DNA from: an uncultured Clostridia bacterium | GTDB lineage: Bacteria > Bacillota > Limnochordia > Darwinibacteriales > DTU012 | Length of the DNA stretch: 64,000 nucleotides | Assembly: GCA_900019385.1 (NCBI GenBank) | Contig: FIZJ01000006.1 | Location: forward strand, 94,593-158,592 | Direction of reading: 5' to 3' | Shown: positions 31,404-57,459 of the stretch, in pieces | Position numbering within the stretch: position 1 is the first letter of the stretch | Layout: each line of letters opens with the position of its first letter | The notes under the pieces: model-generated | Database searches by the model: none | Seen by the model: only the letters and a program-made list of their open reading frames with translations | Told to the model about the DNA's origin: nothing | Made by a program: the position numbers and the translations under genes

Positions 31404-32492
31404 ATGGACTGTTGGGTTGGCCGAGGCACTGTTGTTGAAATAACCGCAGACAAAGGTTCCAAGCAGGAGTTGAAGGTACTAATCGACAATAAGGATGAAA
31501 AGGCCGTGAATTTCCCCTCATTGACCGGCAGATGTGAAGCAGGGGATGAGGTGATTCTCAACACCACCGGCGTATCGTTGGGATTGGGATCGGGCGGTTT
31601 TCACTTCGTCATGGGAATAGTGGGGAAAGAGTGTCAACCATCGCCTGGAGCTGGCCATATTGTCAAGCTCCGCTATACCCCCAGTCAAGGGCGGGTTTTG
31701 AGTGTGGAAGAGCCCGATAGTCCTTTTCACGGTATCTTTTCCTCTGAGGCCTCCATAACGGGGATGCCAGTGGCGGTTGGTTCGCTCCACAGCATGCTGG
31801 CACCGGTGTGCATCGGCTTCAAACACTTGAATCCAGAGGGACGGATAGTCTACCTGATGAGTGACGGCGCTTGCCTGCCGCTGGCATTGAGCGATACGGT
31901 ACAAACCCTCCTGGAACGAGGGCTTCTTGATGACACAATAACTTTCAACCATGCTTTCGGCGGCCATTATGAAGCTGTGAACGTGTACAGCGCTCTGTTG
32001 GCCGCAAGGCATGTCTGCAGCGCCGACGCCGCGGTTATCCTCATGGGGCCTGGCGTAGTCGGTACCGGCACCACGTGGGGTACAACTGGTCTGGAGCAGG
32101 GTATATATTTGAACGCCGTGAATACCCTAAAGGGGTATCCTATAGGCGTCGCGCGGCTCAGCTTTGCGGATCCGCGCCTCCGTCATCAGGGTATCAGTCA
32201 TCACACACTTACTGCCCTGGGACTGATTTGTGAGCGCCCGTGCACAGTTCCTCTGCCCGCCGACCTTCAAGGCTTTCAGCTGATAAAGGACCAGTTAGGC
32301 CAGTTAGAACGGCATCATATTCAGTGGGTGGACATCACAGCCTATCGCAGACTGCTTCAGCATGCCCCGGTCGAGCTCAGATCGATGGGGCGCGATTACC
32401 ATGCCGATCCTTACTTTTTTGAAGCAGCACTAGCGGCCGGCCTGCATGCGGCTGAATATTGTAATGCTTGTGCCACTCGCCAAGAGTCGTGA
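31404..32492 (+). CDS. Conserved hypothetical protein (362 aa, soluble, Gly-rich loops). No family is confidently recognisable from sequence.
   Basis: Strong TAGGAGGTAG RBS 5 nt upstream of the ATG. Uniform coding look. Contains GVSLGLGSGGFHFVMG and MGPGVVGTGTTWG glycine-rich segments. Confidence 0.6.
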   Translation: MDCWVGRGTVVEITADKGSKQELKVLIDNKDEKAVNFPSLTGRCEAGDEVILNTTGVSLGLGSGGFHFVMGIVGKECQPSPGAGHIVKLRYTPSQGRVLSVEEPDSPFHGIFSSEASITGMPVAVGSLHSMLAPVCIGFKHLNPEGRIVYLMSDGACLPLALSDTVQTLLERGLLDDTITFNHAFGGHYEAVNVYSALLAARHVCSADAAVILMGPGVVGTGTTWGTTGLEQGIYLNAVNTLKGYPIGVARLSFADPRLRHQGISHHTLTALGLICERPCTVPLPADLQGFQLIKDQLGQLERHHIQWVDITAYRRLLQHAPVELRSMGRDYHADPYFFEAALAAGLHAAEYCNACATRQES

Positions 32493-39465: not shown

Positions 39466-40227
39466 GTGAAAATGAGCAATCTGACAATCAGCTTTCACGA
39501 CTATCCTATCCTGCCTGATCATGAAGTGCGCAGGCTGCTGAAGGAAGCCCAATCCGGCAGCGATGCAGCAAGGCAGAAATTGGTGGAATGCAACCTACGC
39601 CTGGTAAGAAGCATAGTGATGAGGTTCGCCCACCGGGATGCGGAAATGGACGATTTGTTTCAAATAGGGTGTATCGGCCTGATCAAGGCGATTGACGATT
39701 TCGATCTCAGTTATGATGTCAAGTTTTCCACTTACGCGGTACCGAAAATAATAGGAGAAATCAAACGTTATCTAAGGGAAGCGTCGCCAATGAAAATATC
39801 ACGTTCACTGCGGGAACTGGCCAGCCGAGCCTTGGCTGTCAAGGACAATCTTGCCAGCGAACTGGGCCGTCCGCCGCTGATTGGTGAAATTGCCGGTGAA
39901 CTGGGCGTTTCAAAGGAAGAGTTGATTGCGGCGCTGGAGGCGGTTGCCCCTGTAATGTCACTGCAGCAGGTAATCCTGGAGGATGAAGGGGAAGGTGTAA
40001 GACTTGAGGCTCAGATAGGCAGCGAACCGGACGGTGACGCACTTTACCTGAAAGATGTTTTGCAAAGCCTGGAACCGGATGAGCGGCGACTGCTTTTACT
40101 CCGCTATTTTGCGGAACAAAGCCAGGTGGAAGTGGCTAAAATTTTTGGTGTTTCCCAGGCGCACATATCGCGGATCGAAAAACGAATCCTGAACGAGCTA
40201 CGAAACAAACTTGAGACGAAGGGATGA
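39466..40227 (+). CDS. sigF: Sporulation sigma factor SigF
   Basis: Sigma-70 regions 2-4. ..RLVRSIVMRF.., DLFQIGCIGLIKAIDDFD, and an HTH in region 4. Confidence 0.92.
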   Translation: MKMSNLTISFHDYPILPDHEVRRLLKEAQSGSDAARQKLVECNLRLVRSIVMRFAHRDAEMDDLFQIGCIGLIKAIDDFDLSYDVKFSTYAVPKIIGEIKRYLREASPMKISRSLRELASRALAVKDNLASELGRPPLIGEIAGELGVSKEELIAALEAVAPVMSLQQVILEDEGEGVRLEAQIGSEPDGDALYLKDVLQSLEPDERRLLLLRYFAEQSQVEVAKIFGVSQAHISRIEKRILNELRNKLETKG

Positions 40228-41051
40228 TCTTTCGAGTGCCGGCAGATTTGCATTTACACACCACCGCATCCGACGGGACATGGAGTTTGCCTGAAGTGAT
40301 CAACATGGCTGAAGCATGCGGATTGACAACGATCTCCATTACAGATCACGACACAGTCGATGCTTTAACAACTTTATCGACATCACACACCGGCCTGGAG
40401 ATCATCGCGGGCATTGAATTCGGTACTGAATATTCAAGTCACGAAGTCCATATTCTTGGTTACGGCATAGATATTAGCAATCGGGCACTGCTGAAGACTC
40501 TTGAAACGCTTAAAGCAGAGCGCGAGTCCCGAGCCCGGGCCATGGTGGAACGCCTTAATGAACTCGGCTGCAGTATCACTTTCAGCCGTGTCAAAGAATT
40601 GGCCGGCCCTGGAACCATTGGGCGTGTCCATATCGCCCAAGCCTTAATGGGAGCTGGTTATACTCAAAGTGTCAGGGAAGGGTTCAGCCGATATTTGGAG
40701 ATCAACGGGCCTGCGTATGTGCCGCGGAAGAAACTTACCATCAGGAACGCCATCGAACTGATCAAAGGCGCGGGAGGTGTTCCGGTTTTGGCCCACCCAG
40801 GTCTGGTTGGTGATGATCAACTGGTAAAAGATGTCATCAACATGGGCGTGTTGGGCTTGGAAGTGATCCACTCCAGCCACGATCGTTGGCAAACTGGCAA
40901 ATACTATCGAATGGCTAGACAGATGCAGGTTGTCCCCACGGGAGGTTCTGACTGCCACGGCCCACAAGGCAAAGACAAAGCCCTGATCGGCAAATACGCC
41001 ATTCCCGACACCTGGGTGAGGGAACTGAAAGATCTGATGGCAGTTTCATGA
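40224..41051 (+). CDS. PHP-domain metal-dependent phosphoesterase
   Basis: DLHLHTTASDG...ISITDHDT PHP motifs. Overlaps the sigF stop. Confidence 0.8.
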   Translation: MIFRVPADLHLHTTASDGTWSLPEVINMAEACGLTTISITDHDTVDALTTLSTSHTGLEIIAGIEFGTEYSSHEVHILGYGIDISNRALLKTLETLKAERESRARAMVERLNELGCSITFSRVKELAGPGTIGRVHIAQALMGAGYTQSVREGFSRYLEINGPAYVPRKKLTIRNAIELIKGAGGVPVLAHPGLVGDDQLVKDVINMGVLGLEVIHSSHDRWQTGKYYRMARQMQVVPTGGSDCHGPQGKDKALIGKYAIPDTWVRELKDLMAVS

Positions 41052-41167: not shown

Positions 41168-41707
41168 ATGGAGCTTCACGGCAGCAGAATCAAACTGCGC
41201 CCTATATGCAATGATGATTACCCAAGAATTGTCAGCTGGGGCAAGAATGAGGAAGTCGAGTATTTCAGCGGCGGCAGCTATCCAACCACTCTTGACGAGT
41301 GCCGCGCGTGGATGGCTACGGCCCTAAGCAGCCGTAATCGTGTTAGGTTCGGCATTGCCCTGGGAAGCCGCCTCATCGGCGATATTGAACTGGACCATAT
41401 CGCTTGGCGCCGGGGCGATGCAGAGCTGCGTGTCAGGATCGGAGAAAAAGATCTGTGGGATCTAGGCTACGGAACTGATGCCGTTGTTACACTCCTGGAT
41501 TATGCTTTTGGTGTCATGAATCTGAACTGCGTTTATTTAAAGGTTTATGCCGACAATCACAGAGCTATCAGGTGCTACCACAAAGCCGGTTTCAAGAAGG
41601 AGGGCAAACTGGCCCTAAGCCGCCTGAATCAGCGAGAGATCTATCTTATGCGTGTTCTTAAGAAAGAGTTTTTGCGACGGCAGTTCCGTTTAGCGGCGAA
41701 CAGTTGA
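41168..41707 (+). CDS. GNAT-family N-acetyltransferase
   Basis: 179 aa, acetyl-CoA binding-like motif (..GYGTDAV..), RimJ/RimL-like. Confidence 0.75.
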   Translation: MELHGSRIKLRPICNDDYPRIVSWGKNEEVEYFSGGSYPTTLDECRAWMATALSSRNRVRFGIALGSRLIGDIELDHIAWRRGDAELRVRIGEKDLWDLGYGTDAVVTLLDYAFGVMNLNCVYLKVYADNHRAIRCYHKAGFKKEGKLALSRLNQREIYLMRVLKKEFLRRQFRLAANS

Positions 41708-41718
41708 CTTTTCTGGAA

Positions 41719-41746
41719 GCAAGCTGGGAATGCAGCTTGTTTTCTT
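41719..41746 (+). terminator. Intrinsic terminator after the GNAT gene
   Basis: CAAGCTG-ggaatg-CAGCTTG followed by TTTTCTT. Confidence 0.55.
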
Positions 41747-41891: not shown

Positions 41892-42506
41892 ATGGTTAAT
41901 ATCATCATCAGCGGCGGTCCGGTCATGATCCCATTGTTGCTGTGTTCTGTGGCTGCAGTAGCAATCGGATTGGAAAGACTGTGGTATCTGCTGCGCACAA
42001 GAGTTGACACTGAAGACTTGATGGAAGACATTCAGCTGGCGTTGGGGCAGGGCAAGGTGTTGGAAGCAATGCAAATAGCCAAGAAATCCCGAGGACCGGT
42101 TGCAGCTATCCTCTCCGGCGGAATCGCTTATTACGACAGGGACAAGCATGAGATCAAAGAAAGAATGCAGGAGATCGGCCGGTTGGAGATCTATAAGATG
42201 GAAAAACGGATGAACGTCCTCAACATGGTTGTCAGCATCGCCCCTCTGTTGGGCCTGTTGGGAACCGTAACCGGAATTATTGATGCTTTTAATGTCATGG
42301 GAGCGATGAGGGGCATCCATCAGCCTTCGGATATCAGCGCGGGCATCGCCGAGGCGCTGATTACCACCGCCGCCGGTTTGATGATCGCCATACCGACGAT
42401 GGCGTTGACAGTCTATTTGAACAGCATTATTGACCGCAATATCGCGGAGATGAACAGACGGTCAAACGAACTGCTTGAATTACTCAGTGCCAGGAGTGAG
42501 GAGTAA
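41892..42506 (+). CDS. exbB: MotA/TolQ/ExbB-family proton channel. The ORF opens at 41730; the start is ATG 41892 after a GGAGGGG RBS.
   Basis: 204 aa, three TM segments, TolQ/ExbB pattern (..IAPLLGLLGTVTGIIDAF...). Confidence 0.8.
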   Translation: MVNIIISGGPVMIPLLLCSVAAVAIGLERLWYLLRTRVDTEDLMEDIQLALGQGKVLEAMQIAKKSRGPVAAILSGGIAYYDRDKHEIKERMQEIGRLEIYKMEKRMNVLNMVVSIAPLLGLLGTVTGIIDAFNVMGAMRGIHQPSDISAGIAEALITTAAGLMIAIPTMALTVYLNSIIDRNIAEMNRRSNELLELLSARSEE

Positions 42507-42910
42507 TGGAGTTTAAACGCACGACCCGCGGCTCCGGAGGGCAACCCGACCTCGCGCCGATGATTGATGTGGTATTCCACCTGCTTATATTCTTTATGGC
42601 CTTCTCAGTGCTTTACCAGACTACTATGAGCATCGATGTGGAACTGCCCAAGGCAGTGAGCGGTTCCGACGTCCGTTCTGATAGGTTCGAAATCAGTGTG
42701 ACCAAAGACGGGCTTCTTTCTGTCAACAGGAAGATCGTCACCGCGGCAGAGATGGAGCAAGCCCTTAGAGAAGCGTTGGCTGTCAATCCTGATCTGCTTG
42801 TGCTGATCAAAGGCGACCGACGGGCGACAGTAGAACAGTTTGTCAGTGCCATGGATATTGTAGCGAAGCTGGGTGTGAACAATATTCACGTCGGTACACA
42901 AGAACCTTGA
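42506..42910 (+). CDS. exbD: ExbD/TolR-family protein
   Basis: 134 aa. N-terminal ..DLAPMIDVVFHLLIFFM.. single TM, with a periplasmic-type domain. The start overlaps the exbB stop (TAATG). Confidence 0.82.
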   Translation: MEFKRTTRGSGGQPDLAPMIDVVFHLLIFFMAFSVLYQTTMSIDVELPKAVSGSDVRSDRFEISVTKDGLLSVNRKIVTAAEMEQALREALAVNPDLLVLIKGDRRATVEQFVSAMDIVAKLGVNNIHVGTQEP

Positions 42911-42926
42911 TTAAAAGGTGGATTTT

Positions 42927-43967
42927 ATGATGTATTTCGGCGATCGAGAGAACAACAACCTCAATGTGTTCATTTTCCTGTCCCTGATCATCCACGCCGT
43001 TGTTTTCTGGGCGATTCCCGACTGGGGCAGTTTTTTCAGGTTCGGAGTTGAAGGTACGTCGCAAGGCGGCATGATCAGGGTTACATACGTGCAGAGCAGC
43101 ACCGCCGACGAACTTTCTCCGATTACTAATCCTGCCTCGACAACCAGTACTCCCCAGGTCGAACAACCTCGGCCGACAGAGGAACCTCCCAAGGAACATG
43201 CCGCTGCCATACCCGTCACTCCGGAGTCCCTTGACAGTATTTCACCACCGGTACGACCTCGGCCGCAGCCCGTGGAAATCTCGGAACCGGCTCCGCCGGT
43301 TGTCACCCAACCCCAACCGCAAGAACCGGAGGTTGAAATCGAGCCTGAACCGATCCGGAGCGAAATAGTCACCAGTGAAACAGGACGAGAGATCTACATT
43401 GAAGAAGAGGAGCCAGAAACTGAAGTTGAGCCCGTGATTGAACCGGTATCGACTGCCGAACCGGTTGATGAACCCCTCCACGCGGCTGATCCGGAGCCGG
43501 AGGCCCATGTACAGTCCGATGCCGAACCAGATGAAGGAGACACTGACGCTTCAGGCACTGGAACCGGCATCGTGGGAGATATTGAGGGAGGCTCCGGTTC
43601 TGTCCAAGAGTCAGGCCTGGGAGAAGCGGAAGCTGCGCCACCACCTCCTCCGCCCCCGGCAGCCAGTACCGTGATCAACATTAACGGCAACGGAGGCGTC
43701 GCATACCCGAAGGATTCGCAGGATGAGAAGTCTGAAGGAGTTGTACGGTTGGATGTGCTTGTAGGCATTGATGGTCGCGCTCAAGACGTGGTTGTTTTTA
43801 ATCCTTCAGGCGACCCACGCCTTGATCAGCAGGCCAGGCTCACATTCCTCAGGAATTGGGTGTTTCGCCCCTTGGACAAAACATATATTCTCACCATTGA
43901 TGTGATCTTTTCACTGGCAGATGGGCCAAGAGTCGAGCCGATCTCCATCCGTTGGGCAGAAGAGTAG
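42927..43967 (+). CDS. tonB: TonB-like energy transducer with an unusually long acidic Pro/Glu-rich linker
   Basis: N-terminal TM (VFIFLSLIIHAVVFWAI), about 190 aa P/E-rich spacer, and a C-terminal TonB_C-like domain (GVVRLDVLVGIDGRAQDVVVFNPSGDPRLDQQARLTFLRNWVFRP). Confidence 0.75.
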   Translation: MMYFGDRENNNLNVFIFLSLIIHAVVFWAIPDWGSFFRFGVEGTSQGGMIRVTYVQSSTADELSPITNPASTTSTPQVEQPRPTEEPPKEHAAAIPVTPESLDSISPPVRPRPQPVEISEPAPPVVTQPQPQEPEVEIEPEPIRSEIVTSETGREIYIEEEEPETEVEPVIEPVSTAEPVDEPLHAADPEPEAHVQSDAEPDEGDTDASGTGTGIVGDIEGGSGSVQESGLGEAEAAPPPPPPPAASTVININGNGGVAYPKDSQDEKSEGVVRLDVLVGIDGRAQDVVVFNPSGDPRLDQQARLTFLRNWVFRPLDKTYILTIDVIFSLADGPRVEPISIRWAEE

Positions 43968-43986
43968 CGAAGGGGGAGTGGATGCT

Positions 43987-46023
43987 GTGGCGGCGCCTTC
44001 AAGACAGGCGGTATGCATAATTGCAATTGTTTTGCTCTTTGCCGTATGTTCATTGTCCGCAGCGGCCCAGGAACAAAAGCCGAATCTGGAGATCGCCAAC
44101 GAGTATATCCGGATCATCATCAACACACTCGAGGAGAACATGGGAAGGTTTTCGGTAGGCACTACCGGAGGCGATCCCGACCGGATCGGCGATGAAAACC
44201 AACATTTGATATACGGCGGCGAAGAGCCTTGGACCTCGTACACCACTGTCCGTATCGGTAATCAAAACTGGGTGTACGGCAATCCCACCAACAGACGGGC
44301 CGGAAAAAACGGACTTTACGGACAAGTGGTCCAACCTCCCACTATTATCGACGACAAGTTGGTAAGCAGTTGGCAGCTGGGGCCTATTCTCGTCACCCAA
44401 ATCCTCAGTTTCACAAGGAGCATCACCTCCGGCTTGATGGATACTGCCAAAATCGAATATCATCTTGAGAACACGGATGTTGTCTCTCACATGGTCGGGC
44501 TCCGTTTGGTTCTTGATACCATGCTCGGCCAGAATGACGGCGCACCGTTCCGCCTTACAGATCGTGCTGTTCTGACAGACACAGTGTTCTACAGTCATGA
44601 AATGCCCGCGTTTTGGCAGGCGTTTGACTCCCTGTCCAATCCGCAAGTCATCTCCCAAGGGACATTGGCCGGCGGAGAAGTCACCCCTCCAAACCGCGTT
44701 TATTTCAGCAACTGGGGCAGTATTGTCGACGGCCTCTGGGACTTCAACTACCAGCCCGGGAGAGATTTCATGCGGGCCGGCGAGTTCGAGCTGGACAGCG
44801 CGATTGCTCTTTATTGGGATCAGCAGCCCCTGCGCCCCAATGAATCCCGTACATATGTCGCCTACTACGGGCTCGGCGGCGTGACAATCACTCCTGGTGA
44901 GCTTTCTGTCGCTCTGACTGCTCCATGGCAGGTGAAAGCGGATCAGCGGCACCGAGAGACATTTACCATTGTGGCTTATATTGAAAACACTGGCGAGGGC
45001 GAAGCCAGAGATGTCACTGCCACTCTGCGTCTTCCGGAAGGGCTTGAACTGCTGAACGCCGGGGACAGTCTCCAGCGCCGTTACGGAAATCTCGCAGTCG
45101 GTGAGACCTATCAGACAAGCTGGCAGGTAATCCCTAACGGGGCTGTTTCCGGGGATGTCAGCTTTGAAGTGTTGGTGGAAGCCACCAACAGCGAATCGAG
45201 CTTGGCAAAGCGCAGTGTGCAGATTGTCAAACCAGACTATTTGGAAATAGACCTGATTGGTCCGTTGTTCTTGTCTGTAGAGAACGAACGCCTGTCGCCA
45301 CTACCGATGGAAGTCATGGCAAAGGTCACCAACACAGGTGGGGCGACGGCATATAATGTGGAAGCAGTGCTGCACCATCCCTTGATCAGACTGGCCAGGG
45401 GCGATGTGCCCGTCAAACGCCTCGGCTCGATTGCTCCGAATGATGCGGTGACTGTCACATGGTATTTGGATCCTACGGGGATATCCGGACAACTGGTCTA
45501 CTACCTTGACGTGATTTCGGATACGGACAGATATGCTTCGAACCGGAACGAAGTGTTTATCCCGTATATCGAGCCGAAGGTTTTTGTCGGCGAGCCTCAA
45601 ACCTCGCAAGGCAGAGTAGCCGCAGGCCAGTATTTCTCCATATCGGTCTGGGCAACCAACATACCAGATTTTCGCAAAGCTGTGTTAGAAGTGAACTATG
45701 ACCCACAGTACCTGGAGATCGTCGGCCGTTCGTTGGACATTACCCGAGGCACATTGTTTGTAGACCCTGATCCCGAACAATCCTTACTGCTTAAATGGGA
45801 TATTCCTCTGGTGGACAACCTGAGGGGAGTGGTGTCGGGCATTTCCGGTGATCGCGGCAGCATGCAGTCATCCGATTCCGCGTTCGGGACTTTGATCACC
45901 ATCCATTTCCGGGCTAAAAAGAGCGGAATCACCCGAATCGGACTCAGCAATGTGGCAGTATTTGACAGCAAATTGATTCCCATCGATGTTCGGGTCATCG
46001 ACAGAGATATTGTGATTGAATAA
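43987..46023 (+). CDS. Secreted cell-surface protein of about 680 aa, a candidate for CARDB-like and cohesin-like beta-sandwich domains. The ORF opens at 43921 inside tonB; the likely start is GTG 43987 after a GGGGGAG RBS.
   Basis: Signal peptide AAPSRQAVCIIAIVLLFAVCSLSAAAQE. Beta-rich throughout. Segments such as NTGEGEARDVTATLRLPEGLEL (CARDB-like) and a C-terminal VLEVNYDPQYLEIV (cohesin-like). Confidence 0.6.
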   Translation: MAAPSRQAVCIIAIVLLFAVCSLSAAAQEQKPNLEIANEYIRIIINTLEENMGRFSVGTTGGDPDRIGDENQHLIYGGEEPWTSYTTVRIGNQNWVYGNPTNRRAGKNGLYGQVVQPPTIIDDKLVSSWQLGPILVTQILSFTRSITSGLMDTAKIEYHLENTDVVSHMVGLRLVLDTMLGQNDGAPFRLTDRAVLTDTVFYSHEMPAFWQAFDSLSNPQVISQGTLAGGEVTPPNRVYFSNWGSIVDGLWDFNYQPGRDFMRAGEFELDSAIALYWDQQPLRPNESRTYVAYYGLGGVTITPGELSVALTAPWQVKADQRHRETFTIVAYIENTGEGEARDVTATLRLPEGLELLNAGDSLQRRYGNLAVGETYQTSWQVIPNGAVSGDVSFEVLVEATNSESSLAKRSVQIVKPDYLEIDLIGPLFLSVENERLSPLPMEVMAKVTNTGGATAYNVEAVLHHPLIRLARGDVPVKRLGSIAPNDAVTVTWYLDPTGISGQLVYYLDVISDTDRYASNRNEVFIPYIEPKVFVGEPQTSQGRVAAGQYFSISVWATNIPDFRKAVLEVNYDPQYLEIVGRSLDITRGTLFVDPDPEQSLLLKWDIPLVDNLRGVVSGISGDRGSMQSSDSAFGTLITIHFRAKKSGITRIGLSNVAVFDSKLIPIDVRVIDRDIVIE

Positions 46024-46042
46024 TGTTAAGGGAGGAAACTTG

Positions 46043-47348
46043 GATGAAGGGGTCGCGTATCTTATGTGGAGTGCTTGCGCTGATCTTGCTGTTCGGAAGT
46101 TTATCTCAACCTGTTCTTGCCAGTGTTAAAGATGTGCCCCCAGACCACTGGGCCTATCAGGCGGTTGTTTCCCTTGTAAACCGCGGGTTTTTATCGACAT
46201 ATGAAGACGGCAGCTTCCAAGGAACCAATTCAGTGGACCGCTACACGCTGGCGGTAACAGTAGCCAGGATTCTGGATGAAATCGAGGCAGGCCGGATCAT
46301 AGGCTCCCAAAGCGATGCCGAGTTATTGCGTGAACTAACCACTGAGTTCCGGGCTGAACTTGTGCAGTTTTATGCTGACAAACAGCGACTGGAGAGTGCG
46401 GTCGCCGAAACTCAGAAACTCGGATTGGCCACCGAAGAGCGCCTGAACAACGTCGTGGCCGGCCAAGTGCAGCTCAGCGATGAAGTCGCCAAAATCAAAG
46501 CGGATCTAATGCAAGAAGCGAACAAGACTTCCGAAGCATTGGCTGAGCTTAAGGCATCCATCGATGAGCAGAGGGCTGCAGTTCAAGCTCTTCAGGAACT
46601 GCTCGACACTCGTCAATCGCAGCTGTCAGGCCAAGTCACAGATCAAGGCGATCGCCTGGAGCAACTGCAGAGTGCTTTGATTAAGATTGACCAAAACCTG
46701 ATGCTGCAGCAGAGCGATATTGATCGGATCTTCAACTGGATTGCCGAAAAGGATTTGATCTTCTCCATGCTCGTCTTCGACGAAGAGCTTGAGCAATCCA
46801 TCAATGAACTGTCCGACGCGATTGCATCTTTGAACAAAGATCACGGCTCGGAAATAAATGATCTGCAAAACCGACTGGATAGCCTGATCGCCGCTGTGGC
46901 GAAAGCGGACGGGGAAATGGTCCGCACTCAGGAACAGTTTAAAATCCAGTTGGAGAGCTTGAGCCAGCGCAATCTCGAGGTTAAGAACGAACTTGAGCAG
47001 CTGACATCGCTTTTGGCACAAGAACGGCAAGAGCGGGCCGCTGTGGACAGCGAGTACAATACAGCGCTGAAGGAACTTGAGGCTCAAGTGCAGTATCTGT
47101 CCACCCAGGTTGGTATTTCTGAAGAGGAGTTGGCATCTCTTAACAAGCGCATCTCCGAAGAGATTGCTGTGCAGATGAATGCAGCCTTGATACGGGAACG
47201 GAGCTTGTCCAGTACTGTCGCAGAACTACAAGCGGAGTTCGACAGCTACAAACTAACGGCAGAGAAAGAAATCAAATCGGCCAAAAACACAGCTATGATC
47301 GCGATTGCAGCCGCCGTTATCAGTGTGCTGATCGGATTTGTGAAATAG
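46043..47348 (+). CDS. SLH-domain protein with a long coiled-coil and a C-terminal TM anchor
   Basis: Signal peptide. SLH motif VKDVPPDHWAYQAVVSLVNRGF. About 330 aa of heptad-rich Q/E/L/A sequence. C-terminal TAMIAIAAAVISVLIGFVK. Confidence 0.75.
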
Positions 47349-47367
47349 TGCCGTGTAACACTGATCG

Positions 47368-47406
47368 ACTCTAACCTACTTTGTGCAGTAGGTTAGAGTT
47401 TTTTAT
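47368..47406 (+). terminator. Strong intrinsic terminator after the SLH protein gene
   Basis: ACTCTAACCTACT-ttgtgc-AGTAGGTTAGAGT followed by TTTTTTATT. Confidence 0.75.
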
Positions 47407-55463: not shown

Positions 55464-55485
55464 TTTGGTTAAGGATGTGCTGCCA

Positions 55486-57459
55486 ATGGCCAAATCGGTG
55501 ATTTTCCACGGAGAGACAATTGAAAAGGCAATTGACGCTGGGCTTCAGCAGCTTGGTGTCGATCGTTCACAGGTGAGAATAGAGGTCATCAGTGAACCGA
55601 AAAAGAGCATTTTTGGCTTACCTATCAAATCAGCCGCCGTAAAACTGACACTACTAGATGACGAAAACAAAGATCCAAGCGCAAGTGAGTCTCCAGCGCC
55701 GGTAGATGGGCTTCTTTGGGTCGAAAACGGAAAGCTCCAGTATTCTCCGCCGCAGGCAGGCGGTGAGAACCCTGTCCTGATATTCGACGACCTGGTGACA
55801 GTGTATTACAACGACACCCAGTGCAAGCACAGGGTCGAACTTGATCAAGGATTTGAACCACTACGGCTTGAACTGCCCGAGGACCAGCAGCCGCGCAAAG
55901 ACTTGAATATTTATGTCACGTCAGATCAGCTCCAAGCTTATGTAAGGATTAACAAGCTTGACGGCTGCCGATACTACCTAGTTGATCAGCCGCCGACCAG
56001 ACTGCTGGAATTGAAGTTGGAAAAAGAAATAATCCCTGCACCAAGTATCACCGCCGAAGAGATTCTGGATTTGGCTAGAAATGCAGGAATCACCTACGGG
56101 TTTAATCTAGAGAAGCTGAGAGGCCCAATCCCGTCGGATCAAGATGAAATCCTGATCGCTTCTGGCAGGGCACCTGTTCAACCGAAAGATGGCTCTGTCG
56201 AATATGAGTTTGAAAAACACGAACAACAAGAGCCAGACTTGGATGCGGACAGAATTGACTATTATGAGTTGAAACCTGTTCTGTCTGTTGAGCGCGGCGC
56301 CCTGCTCGCCAGAAGAAACTTGGGGATTCCCGGTGAAAAAGGGATTACGGTTTACGGCAAAGAAATCCCTGTGCCCAGCCCCAAGGAGAAACCTATTCTC
56401 GTAGGTGATGGTGTTTACTTAAGTGATGACGAGTTGACAGCCTATGCCGATCGCGACGGCCTGCCGGTTGTCCAGAACGGTGTTCTCAAAGTGCTCAAAG
56501 TGTTTGAGCTTACACGGGATGCAAACCTGCAAACAGGCAATATCCGGTTTAACGGCGAAATAGTTATCCGCGGCAATGTCAGCGACCGGGTCAAAGTCGA
56601 GGCTCAATCCGGCGGAGTACAAGTGTATGGGATTGTCGATCAAGCGGAGATCGAAGCGGAACGCGATGTGATCATCATGAAAAATGCCATCGCTTCGCGG
56701 ATCAAAGCAGGTGGGCTTGGCGCCATATACACCAAGGTCGGTTCATATCTGCATGAGTTGGAAACTCTATTCTTCCATCTCACCCAATCGTTCATGCTGA
56801 TCCACTCCCGTACCGGAATAGTGGATACAGGAACTCTGGTTAAGAACTTGATTGAAATCAAGTTCCCAAAAATCCCCAAGATGATTCAGGAATTCGACAG
56901 CGAGTTTCAAAGTGCGATGGCATCTTTTCCGCCGGATTTCCGCACCTTGATCCTTGAATTGAAAGCCTATTTCCTAGACCGTGGCCCGCTGCGCATCAAA
57001 GAAATCTGTTTAGTCCGCCAGTTTCTGGAACAAATCGAATACTGGCAGAACCATTTTCAAACAAGCGGGGAACAGGGTGCGGATGTACAGGTAGGCTATA
57101 TCCAGACCTGTTCGATCGAAGCATCGGGCAAGGTTGTGGTAAACGGCAAAGGCGTCTATTACTCAAACATTGTCGCCGGAAAAGGCTACTACCAACCGCG
57201 GGGAGTCTTTCGCAGCAGCAATGTGGTTGTGGAAACTGGGAATATTGACATTAGGGAAATCGGCAGTCCAAGCGGCAGCGCCGCCAGTGCGTCCATCACA
57301 AGCAGGGGTAATATGACACTAAGGACGGTACATCCCAATGTCACTGTGGCGTTCGGCAACCAAAAATACCGTTTCATGCAGCAGGCAACCAATGTGAAAG
57401 TGACATGGACTGAAGAAGAAGGCATGGCTATCTACAGCGGCTCCAAAAAACTACTGTAA
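55486..57459 (+). CDS. fapA: FapA (flagellar assembly protein A, DUF342) family protein. The ORF opens at TTG 55465.
   Basis: N-terminal Jag-like domain (..IEKAIDAGLQQLGV..) and a C-terminal repetitive beta-solenoid-like region. Last gene of the che operon. Confidence 0.6.
   Translation: MAKSVIFHGETIEKAIDAGLQQLGVDRSQVRIEVISEPKKSIFGLPIKSAAVKLTLLDDENKDPSASESPAPVDGLLWVENGKLQYSPPQAGGENPVLIFDDLVTVYYNDTQCKHRVELDQGFEPLRLELPEDQQPRKDLNIYVTSDQLQAYVRINKLDGCRYYLVDQPPTRLLELKLEKEIIPAPSITAEEILDLARNAGITYGFNLEKLRGPIPSDQDEILIASGRAPVQPKDGSVEYEFEKHEQQEPDLDADRIDYYELKPVLSVERGALLARRNLGIPGEKGITVYGKEIPVPSPKEKPILVGDGVYLSDDELTAYADRDGLPVVQNGVLKVLKVFELTRDANLQTGNIRFNGEIVIRGNVSDRVKVEAQSGGVQVYGIVDQAEIEAERDVIIMKNAIASRIKAGGLGAIYTKVGSYLHELETLFFHLTQSFMLIHSRTGIVDTGTLVKNLIEIKFPKIPKMIQEFDSEFQSAMASFPPDFRTLILELKAYFLDRGPLRIKEICLVRQFLEQIEYWQNHFQTSGEQGADVQVGYIQTCSIEASGKVVVNGKGVYYSNIVAGKGYYQPRGVFRSSNVVVETGNIDIREIGSPSGSAASASITSRGNMTLRTVHPNVTVAFGNQKYRFMQQATNVKVTWTEEEGMAIYSGSKKLL

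Follow-up and report, generated by a model that had tools for sequence, protein, structure and literature searches.

What does a TonB-linked motor do when the genes beside it encode, in place of a TonB-dependent receptor, a secreted beta-rich protein and a coiled-coil protein with a domain of S-layer homology (SLH)? The question is raised by a module of five co-directional open reading frames (ORFs) at positions 41892-47348 (forward strand) of a 64-kb stretch of DNA, analysed as a whole and here termed the window, from contig FIZJ01000006.1 of an uncultured Clostridia bacterium (assembly GCA_900019385.1). In order, the genes encode two motor subunits, a TonB-family transducer, a secreted protein of 678 amino acids (P678) and a tail-anchored SLH coiled-coil protein. 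We find here a conserved member of the force-transducing Ton/Tol class, a variant with new partners: in sequence comparisons, its motor and TonB arm are genetically locked to P678 and to the tail-anchored coiled coil across several groups of diderm Terrabacteria.

An ORF check confirmed the five genes at the coordinates assigned to them by an earlier reading of this DNA made from the letters alone (the sequence-only reading). Each of the starts (41892, 42506, 42930, 43987 and 46044) has a ribosome-binding site, all agree with genes called independently on public contigs of identical sequence, and the intergenic spacing within the module ranges from a 1-base overlap to 20 nt. The domain content proposed in that reading was likewise borne out by profile searches, in which MotA_ExbB, ExbD, TonB_C, CARDB and Cohesin scored over cutoff; the SLH domain was recognized through homology to SlpA/OmpM.

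The first two products are identified, by profile matches and conserved residues, as a predicted proton channel of the TolQR/ExbBD type with its catalytic motifs intact. In the ExbB-like subunit the motifs 'AP..GL.GTV.G' of the second and 'G...AL..T..GL' of the third transmembrane segment are invariant in six lineages, as is the transmembrane Asp within 'PMIDV' of the ExbD-like subunit. Among NCBIfam models the ExbB-like protein matched tolQ (E = 9.4e-26) ahead of exbB (1.7e-15), both far under the equivalog cutoffs (tolQ, 90.9 bits vs a cutoff of 221); for the second subunit the preferred model was tolR, likewise far under its cutoff (54.6 bits vs 127.3). The ExbB-like protein is about equally far from the solved chains of TolQ (8odt; 7.6e-11) and ExbB (7ajq; 3.5e-8), and the second subunit about equally far from those of ExbD (7ajq; 1.2e-6) and TolR (9ddm; 7.3e-6). 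Extending the first ORF upstream by 54 codons would place its start on the ATG at 41730, as in one public call (258 residues, locus L003); we prefer 41892 because the extension overlaps a terminator-like hairpin and has no ribosome-binding site, whereas 41892 is served by GGAGGGG.

The third product has the predicted make-up of a TonB-family transducer, comprising a helix with the His for docking to the motor, and a head of the TonB_C type. The head matched PF03544 (TonB_C; E = 3e-10, 40.9 bits vs a gathering cutoff of 24.6) over residues 262-321 in the numbering of a 349-residue form, as well as TIGR01352 (35 bits vs 27.1), and its 'YPK' motif is conserved in six lineages. The N-terminal helix, 'FLSLIIHAVVF', holds a conserved His, intact in those six lineages too, and the pattern S-x3-H occurs in nearly all homologues listed. 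Between helix and head lies a linker of approximately residues 40-255 of 345, 17% of it Pro. This linker had been singled out as atypically long; it is indeed long here, but cannot be taken as a fixed feature because the homologues span 218-456 residues in total length, and, as considered below, this length bears no relation to that of the coiled coil.

P678 was modelled by AlphaFold2 (pLDDT 87.6) as four beta domains. In Pfam, CARDB was matched at E = 1.6e-6 and Cohesin at E = 2e-6 (28.5 bits vs a cutoff of 24.1), both beyond gathering cutoffs. The most conserved part of the protein is the N-domain, which matches nothing in Pfam or NCBIfam and which adopts, in the structural model, a fold of carbohydrate-binding type. 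A Foldseek comparison of the full model with the PDB returned just generic matches to proteins with multiple immunoglobulin-like (Ig-like) domains (integrin alpha, alpha-2-macroglobulin) with TM-scores of <=0.25. No conserved lipobox was found among P678 homologues, and the signal peptide is of type I; with a Sec signal and no lipobox, P678 should in a diderm be a soluble periplasmic protein. NCBI names its homologues 'cellulosome anchor protein', probably a misleading over-annotation: the cohesin-like domain resides on P678 and the SLH domain on a separate protein, and the locus holds no dockerin. A reading of P678 as a cellulosome scaffoldin was set aside on context, the protein being part of a motor operon within core DNA of non-cellulolytic appearance and no dockerin or cellulosomal genes occurring at the locus.

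The fifth product narrowly misses the Pfam SLH cutoff (19.7 vs 20.8 bits), but its residues 17-212 match Deinococcus radiodurans SlpA (7zgx; 3.4e-13) and Veillonella parvula OmpM (8bys/8bym; ~1e-10), and by this homology the SLH call is secure despite the Pfam score. The N-terminal region of the NCBIfam model por_somb also matches (3.3e-13). The predicted helical stalk that follows (~315 residues) abounds in L, E, A and Q, lacks proline throughout residues 96-410, and would reach ~47 nm if it formed a continuous coiled coil. A C-terminal hydrophobic helix closes every homologue of this protein. It has no lipobox, and carries SLH rather than OmpA_C. Some Limnochordia have a greatly lengthened form of it (888, 1039 and 1447 residues in loci L056, L081 and L087); the terminal helix is kept, and the stalk, which would measure at least 100 nm if continuous, affords no simple periplasm-spanning fit.

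The conservation of this arrangement was assessed by scanning a single genome for each species, which yielded 365 genomes with a P678 relative; locus counts were taken from the best 80 of the 365, comprising Limnochordia, Halanaerobiales (Fuchsiella, Natroniella, Orenia, Halanaerobacter and Frackibacter) and unclassified Bacillota metagenome-assembled genomes (MAGs). Among these, ExbB and ExbD lie directly 5' in all loci with enough upstream sequence (68/68), and a coiled-coil gene lies directly 3' of the P678 relative in all those with enough downstream sequence (73/73). The gap between ExbD and the P678 relative holds, in the loci examined, an ORF with an N-terminal membrane helix, which shows the S-x3-H pattern in nearly all of them. 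The coiled-coil homologues run from 223 to >1000 residues in length. Synteny is retained down to 38% P678 identity, and in several lineages the genes for the P678 counterpart and the coiled-coil tether overlap. The five-gene arrangement is conserved far beyond chance. The sequence-only reading had proposed that the motor serves its two neighbours, and their strict co-conservation with it fits that proposal.

More distant homologues, grouped by best-hit ratios (single-linkage clustering merged everything), extend the distribution to the loci listed at the foot of Table 1. From the sequences and taxon names at hand, the module appears in at least four groups of diderm Terrabacteria: Limnochordia, Halanaerobiales, Margulisbacteria and an Armatimonadota-labelled group. 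No Negativicutes name occurs in any of the lists of relatives, which is not proof of absence there. Two other labels are probably those of mis-binned or mislabelled MAG contigs: locus L045 (JBLNCC010000096.1), labelled 'Betaproteobacteria bacterium MAG135', which holds the full module with a P678 43% identical to that of the window, and the homologue P0185, labelled 'Thermoproteota archaeon'.

Table 1. Positions and properties of the module, of its flanking features in the window, and of counterparts at distant loci (aa, amino acids; RBS, ribosome-binding site; LPS, lipopolysaccharide)
Feature	Position	Strand	Remarks
TolQ/ExbB-type proton-channel subunit (predicted), 204 aa	41892-42506	+	PF01618 (MotA_ExbB), E = 3.4e-29; RBS GGAGGGG
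TolR/ExbD-type subunit (predicted), 134 aa	42506-42910	+	PF02472 (ExbD), E = 1.3e-25; start overlaps prior stop codon by 1 nt
TonB-family force transducer (predicted), 345 aa	42930-43967	+	N-terminal membrane helix, acidic Pro-rich linker, C-terminal TonB_C
P678, secreted, 678 aa	43987-46023	+	Sec signal peptide aa 1-27, supersandwich, two Ig-like domains, cohesin-like C-terminal domain
P678 N-domain, galactose-mutarotase-like supersandwich	~aa 30-300 = 44074-44886	+	
P678 Ig-like domains	~aa 305-415 and ~aa 420-525	+	
P678 cohesin-like C-terminal domain	~aa 530-678	+	
Tail-anchored SLH coiled-coil protein, 434 aa	46044-47348	+	signal peptide, one SLH ~aa 27-95, stalk ~aa 96-410, hydrophobic helix ~aa 414-432
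Terminator-like hairpin, 5' side	41715-41744	+	after upstream GNAT gene; 12-bp stem, 5 GC pairs, weak T tract; consensus match only
Terminator-like hairpin, 3' side, strong	47367-47400	+	14-bp stem then TTTTATT; 3' limit of unit
PHP-domain phosphoesterase, RNase AM / pAp-phosphatase (3',5'-bisphosphate phosphatase)-like	40224-41051	+	best NCBIfam matches far under cutoffs
L089, fourth protein 638 aa			five-gene order; LptF/G follow; relatives named Margulisbacteria
L094, fourth protein 661 aa			five-gene order; LPS-type genes (LpxL-type, SIS, HAD) immediately precede it
L093, fourth protein 572 aa			five-gene order; fifth protein without SLH
L095, fourth protein 609 aa			five-gene order; cluster has an Armatimonadetes name
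L092, fourth protein 627 aa			has the SLH partner; motor not visible on so short a contig

The envelope in which such a module would operate bears directly on its interpretation. P678 is 100% identical to a protein of a 'Limnochordia bacterium' MAG, and the Firmicutes with a lipopolysaccharide (LPS) outer membrane are Limnochordia, Halanaerobiales and Negativicutes (bioRxiv 10.1101/2021.05.31.446380); because of that identity and that literature we take the host to be a diderm Firmicute, which the sequence-only reading had offered as its alternative. No outer-membrane markers were found in the 64-kb window, where the genes are of core housekeeping, flagellar/chemotaxis and sporulation types. 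The view put first by that reading, of a thick-walled monoderm endospore-former whose motor displays, releases or remodels an S-layer or other surface protein, recalls the classical use of SLH and cohesin domains for surface anchoring in monoderm Firmicutes, and would accommodate the cellulosomal name borne by P678 homologues. We now consider it highly implausible: every named carrier lineage is diderm, LPS genes flank the module in two lineages, dockerin and cellulosomal genes are lacking at the locus, and the SLH domain and stalk are of the OmpM/SlpA type, described in the literature as a periplasmic tether between outer membrane and peptidoglycan.

A diderm host brings to the fore the interpretation of ordinary Ton import, by which the motor and TonB would energise transporters encoded elsewhere, or too divergent to recognize, with P678 and the tether as linked neighbours or accessories. 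The three inner-membrane parts have all the defining motifs and domains of a Ton system: ExbB, ExbD and TonB_C are canonical, with motifs intact. The tonB gene commonly lies apart from those of the receptors it serves (PMC12204202), and the Negativicutes have many TonB-dependent receptors (PMC13018214). A TonB-dependent receptor was found neither in the window, as the sequence-only reading had noted, nor in ~90 related loci; the absence covers these loci only, which leaves room for receptors in the rest of the genome. Set against ordinary import are this absence, the fixation of the motor to two non-receptor partners, and a five-gene synteny with overlapping genes maintained across phylum-level distances. 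The complete genome of Halothermothrix orenii, described in 2009, encodes ExbB, ExbD and a putative TonB together, for which 'a different function' was put forward by its authors, no receptor being detectable genome-wide (PMC2626281). Ordinary import is therefore unlikely in our estimation, and the rule by which a diderm host would imply an ordinary Ton system is not supported: in four or more groups of diderms the motor keeps its two partners unchanged, neither of them a receptor, and H. orenii has no detectable receptor. A recent survey places Ton systems among Firmicutes only in Negativicutes (PMC12204202); the names Limnochordia and Halanaerobiales are absent from its supplement, and for that reason the statement may reflect sampling.

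We tentatively favour, by analogy, a proton-driven system that would manage the link between outer membrane and cell wall in the manner of Tol-Pal. Two motor genes are succeeded by those for a transducer, a soluble beta-rich protein of the periplasm and an anchored protein that binds the wall, an order that parallels tolQ-tolR-tolA-tolB-pal(-cpoB). Both systems combine a TolQR-family motor of the 5:2 type, motifs intact, with a TonB/TolA-family transducer that has a His-bearing anchor helix; both have a core chromosomal location and a presumed function in coupling outer membrane to wall. The motor would use the proton gradient, and the TonB head would pull on P678, on the tether, or on both; pulling would control the link that the coiled-coil tether makes between peptidoglycan (or a secondary polymer) and a membrane. 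The role so envisaged would be stabilisation or remodelling of the outer membrane-wall connection in growth and division, as performed by Tol-Pal in Gracilicutes. Tol-Pal is reported to be confined to Gracilicutes, and more motor-coupled systems are expected (Williams-Jones et al. 2025, PMC12204202); in the lineages considered here, reported to be without Tol-Pal, the module would do that job.

The analogy is one of working, not of identity: we write 'works like' and not 'is a' because the locus has neither a TolB propeller nor an OmpA-like Pal, and no Ton receptor. P678 combines a supersandwich with Ig-like and cohesin-like domains where TolB joins an N-terminal alpha/beta domain to a six-bladed beta-propeller, and has no TolB, PD40 or WD40 Pfam match. 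In wall binding SLH would take the place of an OmpA-like domain, a C-terminal helix serves as anchor instead of an N-terminal lipid, and the transducer head scores as TonB_C. A further example of a motor with unusual partners is the set of transducers with vWA heads proposed by Williams-Jones et al. 2025 (PMC12204202), in which TolQR-like motors are likewise coupled to non-canonical periplasmic partners; there, in Gracilicutes, a vWA fold replaces the TonB head, whereas here the head is TonB_C and the novelty lies in the partners.

The tether component, too, has relatives with a difference. Omp-alpha of Thermotoga carries a C-terminal hydrophobic segment according to older literature, and the comparison with the fifth protein is one of architecture: SLH, long coiled coil and C-terminal hydrophobic segment. 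The coiled coil of Omp-alpha measures 45-50 nm (PMC10160955), close to the length predicted above for a continuous stalk. Omp-alpha is paired with beta-barrel genes of the Omp-beta type, in contrast to a motor and P678. To OmpM/SlpA the likeness is one of significant homology to solved chains, with a single N-terminal SLH followed by a coiled-coil stalk; the fifth protein differs in having no C-terminal beta-barrel and ending in one hydrophobic helix. Tethers of these kinds, OmpM/SlpA and the split Omp-alpha/Omp-beta, are those known in diderm Terrabacteria (bioRxiv 10.1101/2021.05.31.446380; PMC10160955; PMC10628300). The literature searched, coverage of which was incomplete, contained no description of the five-gene module.

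Several observations weigh against a Tol-Pal-like role. P678 has no similarity to TolB, nor the SLH domain to Pal, and the preference of the motor for TolQ/TolR over ExbB/ExbD, both among NCBIfam models and among solved chains, is only weak. A search for a conserved TonB-box-like segment at the mature N-terminus of P678 homologues revealed none evident, the stretch being short and variable. The lengths of the TonB-like and coiled-coil proteins are uncorrelated (Spearman -0.04, n=61), where co-variation would be expected if both spanned the same gap, and the fifth protein ranges from 169 to >1000 residues among homologues, which is awkward for a simple periplasm-spanning model. In one lineage (L093) the fifth protein retains signal peptide, coiled coil and terminal helix without an SLH domain, so that wall binding is not universal. 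A Sec signal with a terminal hydrophobic helix would by default place the protein in the inner membrane; an outer-membrane location is argued only by the Thermotoga Omp-alpha precedent. The absence of receptors, finally, is a result for the loci given above, and receptors may be encoded elsewhere in this genome.

Some of these same features would suit a machine for biogenesis or placement, in which the motor and P678 extract, chaperone or position the tail-anchored protein, for example from inner to outer membrane, without regulating the assembled tether. What is invariant in the fifth protein is the signal peptide, coiled coil and terminal helix, not SLH; its gene and that of the P678 counterpart overlap; and a helical anchor has no known route to the outer membrane, although the toga (outer-envelope) fraction of Thermotoga shows enrichment of Omp-alpha (PMC10160955). 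Such a machine would be without known example and is purely inferential, and the anchor may simply remain in the inner membrane; we regard this proposal as rather improbable.

The carbohydrate-binding type of fold in the P678 N-domain invites a different comparison. In the Agl-Glt and Nfs systems of Myxococcus, TolQR-like motors together with TonB-like proteins are joined to components of the periplasm and outer membrane, and a motor-driven apparatus for surface motility or polysaccharide, in which P678 binds exopolysaccharide or wall glycan, might be conceived along those lines, the more so as the module adjoins che/fli genes in the window. This adjacency is limited to close Limnochordia relatives, however, with a strong terminator-like hairpin between, and no outer-membrane beta-barrel or Glt-like parts occur at the locus; we give the idea a slim chance. 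Margulisbacteria and Armatimonadota are not known to form endospores, and the presence of the module in these phyla makes an Nfs-like sporulation version unlikely; a role in sporulation more generally was judged unlikely on the same ground. Compared with each of these alternatives, the Tol-Pal-like interpretation is the one we retain. The sequence-only reading as a whole is partly supported.

The boundaries of the module were examined with respect to the single transcription unit between two terminators proposed by the sequence-only reading. Hairpins are present at both ends (Table 1); the window contains 6 such sites vs 8.1 in shuffled sequence, and since the real count does not exceed the shuffled one, both are suggestive only. 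The 5' hairpin, the weaker of the two, is likely the 5' limit of the five-gene unit. A gap of 148 nt lies 5' of the first gene and yielded no sigma-70-like site. The placement that had been described, between the dacF-spoIIA block and che genes, was upheld: the module lies 3' of dacF-spoIIAA-spoIIAB-sigF-PHP-GNAT and 5' of cheW-fliM, within the order flhA ... rpsB ... polC ... infB ... pnp ... spoIIM ... dacF-spoIIAA-spoIIAB-sigF-PHP-GNAT-[module]-cheW-fliM ... mutS. The window represents core chromosome of even composition (~51% GC), and many metagenomes contain the same locus, as do contigs from assemblies GCA_041936385.1 and GCA_049653325.1.

Among neighbouring genes, the PHP gene precedes the motor in many loci of Limnochordia and Halanaerobiales (L007 and many of L009-L088), and in Halanaerobaculum it is just 12 nt from exbB. 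It is absent at the Margulisbacteria and other distant loci; because of this, and of its RNase AM/pAp-phosphatase-like nature, we leave it out of the module, of which its membership is doubtful. Only in Limnochordia does a GNAT acetyltransferase gene (41168-41707, forward strand), with spermidine N1-acetyltransferase as its best weak match, separate the PHP gene from the module. The SLH domains of OmpM in Negativicutes bind polyamine-modified peptidoglycan, and a tie between the GNAT gene and wall polyamines is conceivable. A LOG-family gene (Pfam 'Lysine_decarbox'/LDcluster4) adjoins the motor in two distant lineages (L089, 5170-6207; L093, 2339-3136). Elsewhere in the window, two uncharacterised families occupy conserved positions: a 664-residue protein with Jag_N, FapA_N and FapA encoded after cheR (55465-57459, forward strand), and a DUF3866 protein encoded after pnp (31404-32492, forward strand).

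The P678 N-domain has a distribution of its own. A profile of it searched against 1.84 billion representatives retrieved 3258 clusters at E <= 1e-3, 915 of them at E <= 1e-30, and the domain defines a large family without a Pfam model. It also occurs in motor-free architectures with PKD, PA14 or 'choice-of-anchor D' domains (P0263, at 8001-10508 of L090; P0251, at 6001-7983 of L091; and P0261), one motor-free case having neighbours of archaeal appearance (an ATP-dependent DNA ligase and FrhB-like genes).

Tol-Pal is the sole well-understood energised system acting between outer membrane and wall, and how attachment and constriction of the outer membrane are coordinated in diderm Terrabacteria is central to diderm-to-monoderm models. 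The conserved operon of motor, transducer, partner and tether is a concrete and testable candidate for that coordination. A bolder claim, possible in our view though doubtful, is that the module constitutes the Terrabacterial counterpart of Tol-Pal, ancient, vertically inherited and proton-driven, with its TonB arm acting on a periplasmic glycan-binding protein and a tail-anchored SLH coiled coil so as to couple outer membrane and wall as cells grow and divide. If true, it would account for the 'orphan' ExbBD-TonB reported from Halanaerobiales in 2009, and would have implications for how the forebears of Gram-positive bacteria tethered their outer membrane and came to lose it.

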